DNA of 64,000 nucleotides from Escherichia coli (GTDB lineage: Bacteria; Pseudomonadota; Gammaproteobacteria; Enterobacterales; Enterobacteriaceae), in assembly GCF_030013595.1 (NCBI RefSeq), contig NZ_CP122768.1, one strand, 5' to 3'. Positions 55,701 through 58,700 of this stretch are shown in pieces (the stretch's first letter is position 1; every line of letters begins with the position of its first letter). A program made the position numbers.

Positions 55701-58700
55701 ACAGTGCGGGTCTTGCCGCTGTGCATGGGTGCGCGATGGCACGACACAAAAAAAGACGCTGGGCGCGTCTGTGTCGCCTTTTGCTCATTAAACGGGTTCC
55801 TACGCCCGGCTGGTGGATTTACACCAGCGGGGGAAATATAACGCCCACCAGCGATGGCAGGCAAGCAATATTTGCGGTTGCCGCCCATCCCGTGGGGCGT
55901 GTGGTGGTTGTTTTGGGCGTGAGAACGCCCCGGCCCTGTTACGGGCCTTTCTGGCATTTTCATAATGATTATCGCGGTTGGTTAGTGGCTGGTGGGTTCT
56001 TTGTTTTTTTGCGCTCTGGCGATAATTTCTGCCATTACGTTATTGCGTTCCTCCACGCGGGCCGCAAGCCATGCATTAACTTCGGATTCAAACCATCCAA
56101 CGCGGCGCAGCCCGCGACGAAAGCCGGGGATAAATTCGCCAGCCCGAATCATGTCGTCAATGCTGGTAGTGGAACGAAGGCGCAGACGCGCAGCAACCTC
56201 GCGTTTGGTGAGGATTTTATCTTGTGTGGTGTCCATGATATTTCGCCTCTTAATTGTATTAATTGGCCCTAACTGGCCATAACAATATGGAAGCACAAGA
56301 AGGCGTGAAATTGCCGGACATGTCCATCAGATGGCTGACATGTCCGGCGTATACTCATTCGTGAATTGACTAATCAACCTTAAACCAGCGTCGCATGGTT
56401 TTTTGTGAGGGCAGAGATAAACCAGCTTTGCAAAAATCGTTTTCTAATTCTGTTGGCTGGCCCTTGGTTTTGTCTTCTCTTACATGAAGCCATGGTTTGC
56501 CTCGCTTCGTTTCATCCTTGTAATACAGATAAAGCAAATCATCCACAAAAGCAGGCAGTGCGCTTCTTGGGTCTGGTTGTGTCGTCGGTGATGGTAGTTT
56601 TTTGGTTATGCACCCCATTAACATCCCGTTAGCGCAATCTCTCCCGCCATCCTTAAGGATTTCGATTTCTTCGGCGGTAATAAACAGGTCATCAATGCTT
56701 ACATCGAGTGGACTGGAATCAAAAGTAATCATCGGGCTGAGGGAATAATCGTCACCGTCAGTGTTCATTGTCCTTGGCTTTCCAAGAGAAAAACGAGCCG
56801 ATGACTTTCCATATTTTACAAAATCATAAAAAGGCATGGATTTGGTCAGGTTGCATATGGACATTAACCCTTCTATGGTCAAGTACCTGTATCCCATTAA
56901 AGGTATTTGGTTTTTCGGAATACCTCTGGGACGTTCTTCACTGATAAACAGAATTGCTGTTGTGACTTCAAAATCTCCCGCGCTATATGGTGTATAGACG
57001 GTAAATGGTAGCTGACACAGTGAATCGCCAAGCGGTTTAAATAAAACATACTTATCAGTTGATTTAGTTTCATAATGGTTAAACAGGTCAATTTCAGCCC
57101 GCCACCTTCCTGATATATGTGTACAAATCTCCAGCATTCCTATGTCAGCAAAATGAAGCAAATCATCAACACTGCACTTATTGGAGTTTGCAGTCAGATA
57201 ACTGGCCGCATCGCGTAGTGAGTAAAACAATCTTTTAGGTAATGCCATATTATTCACCAACCACTTTTAAGCCACGAAAACCGCCAGTTGCACTAAGGCT
57301 TCCGGTTGCTGCCTGTTCGATAAAATCACCCCACCACGCCATCAGTGGGCGGCGTTGCTCCAGATATGTGGAGCGATTGTAAGCCCGTCTCACCGTGTCC
57401 TTATCCAGATGGGAAAGCGCAGCCTCTATTACATCTGGCGGGAACCCCTGTTCATTAAGCGCCGTACTTGCTACAGAGCGTAAACCATGCGCCACCAGCT
57501 TTCCGGTATACCCCATGCGCCTGATAGCGGCGTTTGCGGTCTGTTGATGCATCCCACGCATGGGGTCGCTGTTATGTGGAAAAACAAACTTTCGATGCCC
57601 GCTGATTGGGCGCATGGCTTCAAGAATGGCCATTGCCTGATTATTCAGGGGGACAATGTGCTCCCTTCGTTGTTTTAGTCGCCCGGCTGATATACGCCAC
57701 ACTCTGGCATCTGCATCTATCTCGCTCCACTGTGCCCCGGCTGCCTCGCATGGGCGGCAAATAGTTAATAATTGCCATTCAATAACAAGACGCGTTTGAA
57801 GTTCTGCGCGAGCCGTTGCCAGTTTTTGCATAAATTCCGGCAACTCATCAGGCCTGATTGTTGGCATGTGTTTAACTACAGGTGGGTTGAATGCCTTGCT
57901 GATTTGAGCGGCGGGATTAGCTGGAATTAATCCAATATTCACTGCGTAATACATAACCTCATTGATTCTTTGTGCCAGCCGTCGCACCGTATCCGCTTTG
58001 CCCTGTGCTGATACAGGTTTCAGGGCTTCGATAAAATCCCGTGCAACCAGTTCTGTGATTGGGCGATGGCCTATGGGTGGCAGCACATGACGCTCAAGAG
58101 AACGCCATATATCACGGAGTGTATTTGCCGCCAGATTCTGGCCGCGCTTTACTTCAAACCATTCTTCGGCCACGCGCTGAAATGTGTTTAATCGCCGTAT
58201 TTCATCATCCCGGCGTTGTTTTTCCCTGTGTTCTTTGGGGTCAGTTCCATTTGCGACCAGTGAGCGATACTCGTCTTTAATCCTGCGAGCATCGGCAATG
58301 CTGATTTCGGGATATGCACCAAGGCTTAACATTGCCCGTTTTTTGGTGTGTGGCTTGTAGTACCGGAACCGCCATAAGGCTGATGCGCTACCCGCTTTCA
58401 CAACTAACTCCAGCCCATCGCCATCCGTGATAAATAAATCCTTCTCGGCGGTGAGCGATTTCTTCTGCAAACTTTTAATCGTCGCTGGTGTAAGTAATTT
58501 TGTGTTTTTGGCCACTGGTTGCATCCCGAAACAGGTTTAAGGCATACGAGATTGCTTCTGTTTGTGAGGATATGCCTTGATGTATGCCTAAAGAATCTGG
58601 CTTATACCTTAGCAAACTGGCCAAAACTGGACAATAAAAAACCCGCAAGCCTTGTGTGGCGCGGGTTTCGTCTGATTAACTGGCCGTATCTGATACTAAC

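Follow-up and report, generated by a model that had tools for sequence, protein, structure and literature searches.

What a perfect inverted repeat does directly upstream of alpA is the question raised by a locus of Escherichia coli contig NZ_CP122768.1 (assembly GCF_030013595.1), of which a stretch of 64,000 nt (hereafter the window) was analyzed. The repeat, or dyad, lies between alpA and a gene of 292 amino acids, here called gene X, which follows the integrase gene int in a small phage satellite integrated at ileX; alpA would be the switch gene that takes this satellite out of quiescence and into excision and replication. How helper phages activate alpA and the early regulon has been posed as an open question (PMC6092414, PMC10803314). 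In Gram-negative satellites, alpA is transcribed in response to the helper phage and independently of the SOS response, and no repressor has been identified (PMC6092414, PMC11773190). The initial annotation of the window proposed that the repeat could terminate transcription of int and gene X, act as an operator controlling alpA, or both. We conclude that the dyad is probably a protein-binding DNA site rather than a terminator, and assign this reading a probability of about 0.8 on the basis of sequence comparison.

The genes int, X, alpA and the others here are all located on the minus strand. A perfect inverted repeat with a 12-nt spacer is indeed present between gene X and alpA, as initially described, and it exceeds the chance level. 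It consists of perfect 12-nt arms (GCCGGACATGTC and GACATGTCCGGC) and extends from 56313 to 56348, one base further on each side than the 56314-56347 given before. It is located 21 nt, not 23 nt, past the TAG stop codon of gene X (56370-56372) and 76 nt ahead of the alpA ATG at 56236. The palindromy of each arm had been missed. The whole dyad equals two tandem palindromic sites: the alpA-proximal site (56316-56325) is a perfect 10-bp palindrome, GGACATGTCC (10/10), and the alpA-distal site tGACATGTCC (56336-56345) contains a perfect 8-bp palindrome, GACATGTC (8/8), at 56337-56344. The start-to-start distance of the two palindromes is 20 bp and the dyad is equally a direct repeat with a 20-bp period; the arm-to-arm inverted repeat exists because each copy is a palindrome by itself. 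When the sequence was shuffled with dinucleotide composition preserved, the exact dyad pattern was found in 0 of 100 shuffles. Seven distinct perfect inverted repeats (arms of at least 12 nt, spacer of 20 nt or less) were observed in the window vs 0.15 per shuffled window, and the dyad is the only one among these seven with a spacer as large as 12 nt. No copy of GACATGTC was found in the 64 kb other than that in the dyad.

Relatives were gathered in three ways, using AlpA homologues, gene X homologues and the pure DNA pattern, and related islands with the same layout were found in E. coli, Salmonella, Enterobacter and other hosts (individual loci are given L numbers below). In every case in which an alpA-type gene comes after an X-family gene, the dyad is located 8-27 nt past the X stop codon and about 64-95 nt ahead of the start of alpA. 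For most locus types the dyad is a pair of palindromes 20 or 21 bp apart, a spacing that holds for every tandem-type locus; pairs of this layout lie 70-95 nt before alpA. The palindromes fall into a few sequence classes (GGACATGTCC, GGAATATTCC and CGTAATATTACG), all of which fit a general half-site, G-K-A-M-A-T. Sites 20 bp apart were found in L010 (GTAATATT twice), L023 (TGGAATATTCCA twice) and L024 (GGAATATTCC twice). The distance is 21 bp in L013 (GGAATATTCC twice), L021 (CGGACATGTCCG twice), L146-148 (TGGAATATTCC(A/G) twice), L014 and L017-20 (CGTAATATTACG with CGTAATATT(C/G)CG) and L022 (CCGGACATGTC with a 22-bp perfect palindrome around the core CGGACATGTCCG). The palindromes of L013, L021, L023, L024 and L146-148 are perfect over 10-12 bp.

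The core CGGACATGTCCG is identical in the window, L021 and L022, although their spacers are unrelated and identity between their X proteins is only 29-35%. In the case of L146-148, the 9-nt spacer differs at several positions and both 12-bp sites are invariant. When L004 was compared with the window, the only arm changes were found to break the two outermost pairs (A.C and C.C), with the cores intact, and no compensatory changes in the dyad arms were observed among the compared relatives. Thus, with the same core kept, the spacers diverging and no compensatory change, the dyad appears to be maintained by sequence-specific recognition and not by selection for pairing alone. A scan of IMG/VR by DNA pattern, with no protein input, placed three of the four tandem GGAATATTCC matches directly after the stop codon of an X-family gene. 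The architecture, its conservation, the constraint on the sequence itself and the linkage to gene X are properties read directly from the compared loci. When metagenomes were scanned with AlpA, no more than four loci were obtained, each of the L014 type. Two scans of genome contigs were of no use; the first, with AlpA peptide patterns, returned 39 stretches, which are unconfirmed.

The genome contigs were also scanned with the GACATGTCC tandem pattern, and among the matches listed were unrelated repeat arrays (Diplocloster and termite-gut metagenome-assembled genomes) with no X gene. In these loci (L026-L104; Diplocloster modestus, D. agilis and termite-gut Treponema, Prevotellaceae and Planctomycetaceae metagenome-assembled genomes) the 9-mer pair is found at many sites per genome, some of them in arrays with a 42-bp period, and looks like an unrelated dispersed or tandem repeat family.

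Tandem palindromic operators to which dimers bind cooperatively are well known, for example lambda OR1/OR2, paired ARG boxes and tandem SOS boxes. The dyad shares with them two palindromes placed whole helical turns apart, here beside a candidate promoter, and the sequences are unrelated. Each site is palindromic, the sites lie on the same helix face because they are 20 bp apart, and the sites are conserved with a diverging spacer. The operator proposed in the initial annotation is in substance supported, as the placement and the architecture are conserved upstream of alpA and the constraint is at sequence level; binding itself is predicted.

Two other roles were considered for the repeat. It could act as RNA, in that the int-X transcript would carry at its 3' end a hairpin that serves as a weak terminator, a stabiliser against 3'-exonucleases or a processing site. 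Its location 21 nt past a stop codon is the usual place of a terminator, the perfect 12-bp stem is G+C-rich (seven G-C pairs), and the following observations weigh against a site for protein binding. The dyad can fold as a stable RNA hairpin (minimum free energy, MFE, of the region about -26 kcal/mol; z -2.7), and a dyad capable of forming a hairpin is found at the same spot in every relative, with differing sequences. One long single-centre palindrome replaces the tandem pair in L006, L011, L012 and the more distant L016. Terminator-like U/T-runs follow the dyad in L012 and L016; in the L014 type such a run follows the first palindrome. In the window, however, the loop is 12 nt instead of the about 3-8 nt of a terminator, the stem is followed by no U-run on either strand (minus-strand tail AATTTCACGCC, plus-strand tail GTATACTCAT; the RNA tail AAUUUCACG contains none), the terminator scan (loop limit 3-8 nt) did not report the dyad, and no Rfam 15 covariance model matched 55900-56500 at E-values up to 1. 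A canonical intrinsic terminator in the window is not supported, given the missing U-run and the 12-nt loop, and this half of the initial proposal was abandoned. In addition, an RNA stem leaves unexplained the self-complementary arms, which are present in at least eight independent locus types. The lack of compensatory changes, the cores kept across very divergent islands with differing loops and spacers, and the pair-breaking changes in L004 also speak against it, and we regard an RNA role as improbable. Because U-runs are found at the homologous spot, the dyads of L012, L016 and the L014 type may have a double role as terminator and binding site.

The tandem palindromes could also be origin iterons or another site for the replication proteins of the island. 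Lambda-type origins carry tandem palindromic iterons about 20 bp apart, and the same motif is located just after an AAA_25 or Prim-Pol helicase gene in four phage contigs. However, a typical ori-like region exists separately at 51630-51872, directly 3' of the DUF927 gene, with GTGGGAAC iterons in two inverted sets and perfect 30-nt arms (51630-51659 and 51843-51872) flanking an AT-rich stretch of 183 bp. It has no sequence in common with the dyad, and GACATGTC is confined to the dyad. Moreover, L014 (AAA_25 helicase) and L010 (DUF927) share a palindrome class and differ in their replication proteins. As the ori-like cluster uses GTGGGAAC and not the repeat of the dyad, origin iterons were rejected, and a site for the replication proteins of the island seems very improbable.

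If the dyad is a protein-binding site, it would act on a weak promoter. A candidate sigma-70 promoter (score 7.0) was located on the minus strand at 56282-56309, with a -35 element TTCACG (56304-56309), a 16-nt spacer and a -10 element TATTGT (56282-56287), and a candidate was found at the same position in L004, L010 and L014. No strong sigma-70 promoter was found between gene X and alpA in the window or in any relative. The candidate -35 element is poor and abuts the dyad; with these weak consensus matches, the palindrome centres would fall near -45 and -65, a placement that would correspond to an activator-like geometry, with transcription of alpA predicted to start near 56275. We infer the promoter position and the sign of regulation from this arrangement. 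The whole package, in which the paired palindromes form a control element for a weak alpA promoter and the binder is left unnamed, is somewhat favoured. A DNA-binding protein with sequence specificity would place one dimer on each of the two palindromes and so set alpA transcription. The dimers could recruit RNA polymerase once a helper phage is present; alternatively, they could keep the junction shut to transcription that reads through from the constitutive int-X operon.

The initial annotation had also suggested that the repeat would uncouple expression of the cargo gene from induction of the satellite. A decoupling of int-operon read-through from alpA induction is plausible, and the more direct candidate for it is a conserved hairpin in the alpA leader (56244-56305, minus strand). 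Its 5' strand at 56296-56305 (CGCCT/CTTG) pairs with 56244-56252 (TAAGAGGCG), which holds the Shine-Dalgarno (SD) sequence AAGAGG; ATTGT/ACAAT forms the middle stem and GGCC/GGCC the inner one. The hairpin was noted in the leaders of the window, L004, L006, L010-L014, L021 and L022. The pairing probability of the SD zone was 0.81 in the window and 0.65-1.0 in ten relatives, and the mean MFE z over ten loci was -2.1. The leader arms of the relatives differ yet are complementary (TCATATCG/CGATATGA, CATATCTCC/GGAGATATG, GTATTCCT/AGGAATAC and AATCCCC/GGGGATT). They enclose a GGCC-n6-GGCC stem, which in L014 is replaced by AGGC-n8-GCCU, so that the pairing is kept and the repeat is not. RNAalifold recovered the inner GGCC stem only, because the outer arms do not align, and the outer stem was assessed locus by locus.

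The candidate -10 element overlaps or follows the 5' arm of this hairpin. Transcripts from the alpA promoter would therefore be free of the anti-SD segment, and int-X read-through transcripts would carry it. The hairpin could thus block translation of int-X read-through and insulate alpA, in the style of fold-back inhibition. In IS10 and IS50, transcripts that enter from upstream carry an anti-SD segment, which base-pairs with the site of ribosome binding, and transcripts from the element's own promoter start inside the hairpin and are free of this segment. The likeness is limited to the leader hairpin; alpA is not a transposase gene, and the start site here is predicted. Within the leader, GGCCAG-n4-GGCCA (GGCC-n6-GGCC; 56264-56279, minus strand) is conserved in all islands of this AlpA subfamily; AlpA possibly binds it, or it forms the innermost stem of the leader hairpin. 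Short direct repeats of 10-bp period vary with the AlpA subfamily, from GGCCAG-n4-GGCCA in the window to GTCTA-n5-GTCTA in L023 and L146-148 and CACCGGA-n3-CACCGGA in L191 and L194, and are candidate sites of AlpA autoregulation.

Gene X (56370-57248, minus strand; WP_001207580.1, annotated hypothetical) was initially labelled a cargo gene, a label that does not fit. It is a conserved and quickly diverging open reading frame (ORF) that always stands beside int and has no match in a defence or Pfam family. The int stop codon (57250-57252) and the X ATG (57248) are separated by a 1-nt gap in the window; in most relatives the gap or overlap is -8 to +4 nt, and in a few (L006 and L023) it is about 90 nt. 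The proteins at this position are homologous across all relatives. They consist of a conserved N-terminus (LPxRxYYxLxxAA...DLLHF) with a predicted MerR/Xis-type winged helix, a hypervariable middle and a conserved C-terminal third ending in ...PSGKTxxxW. A profile search of 1.84 billion representative proteins returned 208 clusters at E-values up to 0.001, with named members in E. coli, Salmonella, Enterobacter, Photorhabdus and Pasteurellaceae, every one annotated as hypothetical. No match was obtained in Pfam, PHROGs, NCBIfam or PADLOC, and gene X matched no defence-protein model; the X-family alignment had no match in viral contigs, nor did two X proteins have a tblastn match in the phage collection. 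Gene X is thus not cargo. The family always adjoins int, like the iolg/icg genes of the PICMIs (phage-inducible chromosomal minimalist islands), and gene X occupies the position of that class, contiguous with int and between int and alpA.

Which protein would bind the palindromes was approached through the island's own genes and through factors supplied in trans, and the identity of the binder is inferred. Gene X, co-expressed with int, is the first candidate, put forward tentatively; its conserved ends could serve DNA or partner binding and its hypervariable middle could sense the helper. Two forms of the C-terminal third are distributed with the palindromes: PRSxLPxF(I/V)...SQKT(M/I)(R/K)RW goes with ACATGT sites and KTxNxQxxFI...SGKT(I/V)D(K/R)W with AATATT sites. 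The X proteins of the window and L021 are 65% identical in this third and 35% identical overall. Four points count against gene X. Common descent and physical linkage confound the match between C-terminus and palindrome class, and the N-terminal 'recognition' helix is acidic and the same across classes. An analogous tandem dyad, with AAACGGT-n4-ACCGTTT and AAACGGT-n4-ACTGTTT at a distance of 20 bp, stands 63-77 nt ahead of alpA in tRNA-Pro satellites that have no gene X (L191, L194 and about 20 contigs of IMG/VR), so gene X is not required for the layout. Finally, tandem GGACATGTCC is found in about eight phage contigs with no X-like ORF.

Because of these four points, a factor that is not encoded by the island, likeliest a transcription activator of the helper phage, is a serious rival, in itself somewhat unlikely; alpA would then fire only during lytic growth of the helper. 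The satellite would copy the sites of this activator, as P4 copies the Ogr/delta site of P2 in its promoters Psid and PLL. The need of alpA induction for a helper phage and not for SOS (PMC6092414, PMC11773190, PMC10803314) agrees with such a factor, as do the placement of the palindromes at about -45 and -65 relative to a candidate promoter whose -35 element is poor and the tandem layout kept in satellites without gene X. Tandem GGACATGTCC is also located at operon boundaries of diverse phage contigs, for example between primase-helicase and terminase in L156, and the remaining one of the four tandem GGAATATTCC matches (L145) is a phage contig without X. On the other hand, the island has no known helper and no candidate activator was identified, the TGT-N12-ACA spacing of P2 is not found (N14-15 here), the pair always starts within 27 nt of the X stop codon with three of four independent pattern matches linked to X, and the IMG/VR search for the L191-type dyad gave almost only the satellites themselves.

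Other binders were rejected. AlpA is not the specificity determinant, as L010 and L021 have a near-identical AlpA helix and wing with different palindromes, and GGAATATTCC is common to L013, L023 and L024, although the AlpA proteins of the latter two are of other subfamilies than that of L013. Int was rejected because islands of all three palindrome classes share the ileX site and closely related integrases. In the case of the Ogr/delta box and the LexA box, neither spacing nor sequence fits. Pairs of GGACATGTCC match the eukaryotic p53 half-site consensus exactly, which we take to be a coincidence of no relevance here.

Several side observations concern these loci. In the islands without gene X (L191 and L194 of E. 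coli; L196-L223 of IMG/VR), a canonical terminator follows a 76-amino-acid ORF and precedes the dyad; this ORF has no detectable relation to the X C-terminus, and in L203 the centre of the dyad is changed with the arms kept. The phage contigs with tandem GGACATGTCC at 20-21 bp (L149, L150, L152-L155, L157 and L158 of IMG/VR) range from 29 to 67% G+C, often have extra GGGACA half-sites nearby and include an array with a 21-bp period (L153). In four phage contigs, tandem GGACATGTCC lies 14-41 nt after the AAA_25/DnaB-like or Prim-Pol helicase gene. In L145, tandem GGGAATATTCC sites are located between terminator-like hairpins (4440-4490), and a TTATGCAGTTT motif near them is also present in the L024 leader. 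The distant X-bearing element L024 encodes a P2-type capsid-family protein (Phage_cap_P2; 1287-2252) and a second AlpA gene, which hints at a P2-like helper for this branch.

The locus was compared with known systems. P2 late promoters and P4 PLL and Psid carry an Ogr/delta dyad, TGT-N12-ACA, centred near -55. The present locus resembles P4 PLL/Psid in being a putative satellite promoter of an AlpA/Vis-type first gene with an upstream dyad and in the logic of helper coupling, and about 55 nt separate the centre of the whole dyad from the start site that is predicted here. It differs in its spacing (TGT-N14-ACA in the window, N15 in L021 and L022), in having two complete palindromes and not one split dyad, and in that the island has no ogr/delta, sid or psu genes.

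A close parallel in organization is the PICMI of Vibrionaceae (PMC10803314), which is also about 8 kb, has no capsid genes and has the order int, int-contiguous gene of unknown function, alpA and primase; expression of int and iolg is constitutive, and the early regulon, induced by the helper, begins with alpA. In PICMI115, iolg overlaps int, is constitutively expressed with it and is required for helper-induced excision, and alpA-up1-prim is the helper-induced early regulon (PMC10803314). The island here differs in its E. coli host, in the ileX and not fis site and in its Toprim and DUF927 replication genes. No palindromic sites are described in the PICMI paper (PMC10803314), in which the iolg/icg genes belong to 13 unrelated families, and gene X is likened to them by position, not by sequence. 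By analogy, the block of induction upon iolg deletion would fit an activator or an excision cofactor better than a repressor. The Gram-negative phage-inducible chromosomal islands (PICIs) EcCICFT073 and EcCIMP1 (PMC6092414, PMC11773190) likewise have int at one end and an AlpA-type gene, and in islands of this type AlpA is a master activator with positive autoregulation (PMC6092414, PMC11773190). The present island differs in having no packaging or capsid-redirecting genes, and in EcCIMP1 the place between int and alpA is taken by a small ORF that is UvrB-like and does not belong to the X family. If gene X is the binder, it would resemble Stl of Staphylococcus aureus pathogenicity islands and Rpr of Gram-positive PICIs (PMC6092414) as a highly variable island-encoded regulator, co-expressed with int, that controls the excision-replication operon and couples it to a helper protein; stl is divergent from the operon it represses, whereas gene X runs in the same direction as alpA.

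The island of about 8 kb is inserted at the ileX tRNA (58713-58788, minus strand; CAT anticodon, annotated tRNA-Ile), which marks its int-proximal end, and it adjoins mug-rpoD-dnaG. By size and gene content it resembles the small primase-bearing satellites (PICI, PICMI and P4-like). Its gene order is integrase, gene X, dyad, alpA-like gene, Icd/Ash-like gene, two hypothetical genes, Toprim gene and DUF927 helicase gene. The integrase (57250-58524, minus strand) is a P4-type tyrosine integrase with an arm-binding domain. The alpA-like gene (55982-56236, minus strand) encodes a winged-helix regulator of 84 amino acids and is the first gene of the early operon, which continues to DUF927. The gene after alpA (55358-55963, minus strand) combines an Ash-like N-terminal part (PHROG 6928 'transcriptional repressor', E-value 1e-50) with an Icd-like C-terminal motif; at this position relatives have AntA, Bro-N or ORF6N anti-repressor-like genes instead. 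The exact island was found in 17 of 5426 complete E. coli genomes, mostly pig-derived. In strain cq9 (L001, 13301-14565) the integrase of an otherwise identical island is annotated as frameshifted, and an IS4 is located between mug and rpoD; some copies of the island are probably immobile.

In full-text literature searches, no paper was found on these palindromes or on what iolg-like genes do, and the module is best seen as a variant of a familiar type of control element that is not described in the literature searched. The paired palindromes and the conserved neighbour gene offer concrete targets for mutation in the question of how helpers switch on alpA. The finding also corrects the annotation habit of calling the genes between int and alpA a defence hotspot or accessory cargo. 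Should a helper factor prove to be the binder, the helper to which a satellite answers could be predicted from its palindrome class. A more far-reaching and rather doubtful possibility, which takes gene X as the positional counterpart of PICMI iolg, is that the X family, of which Enterobacterales and Pasteurellaceae hold at least 208 representative clusters, provides the regulator by which Gram-negative satellites sense their helper and which has so far been missing: bound to the palindromes, the X protein would read a helper protein through its hypervariable centre and turn on alpA. If true, this would explain both the need for iolg in induction and the helper dependence of alpA.

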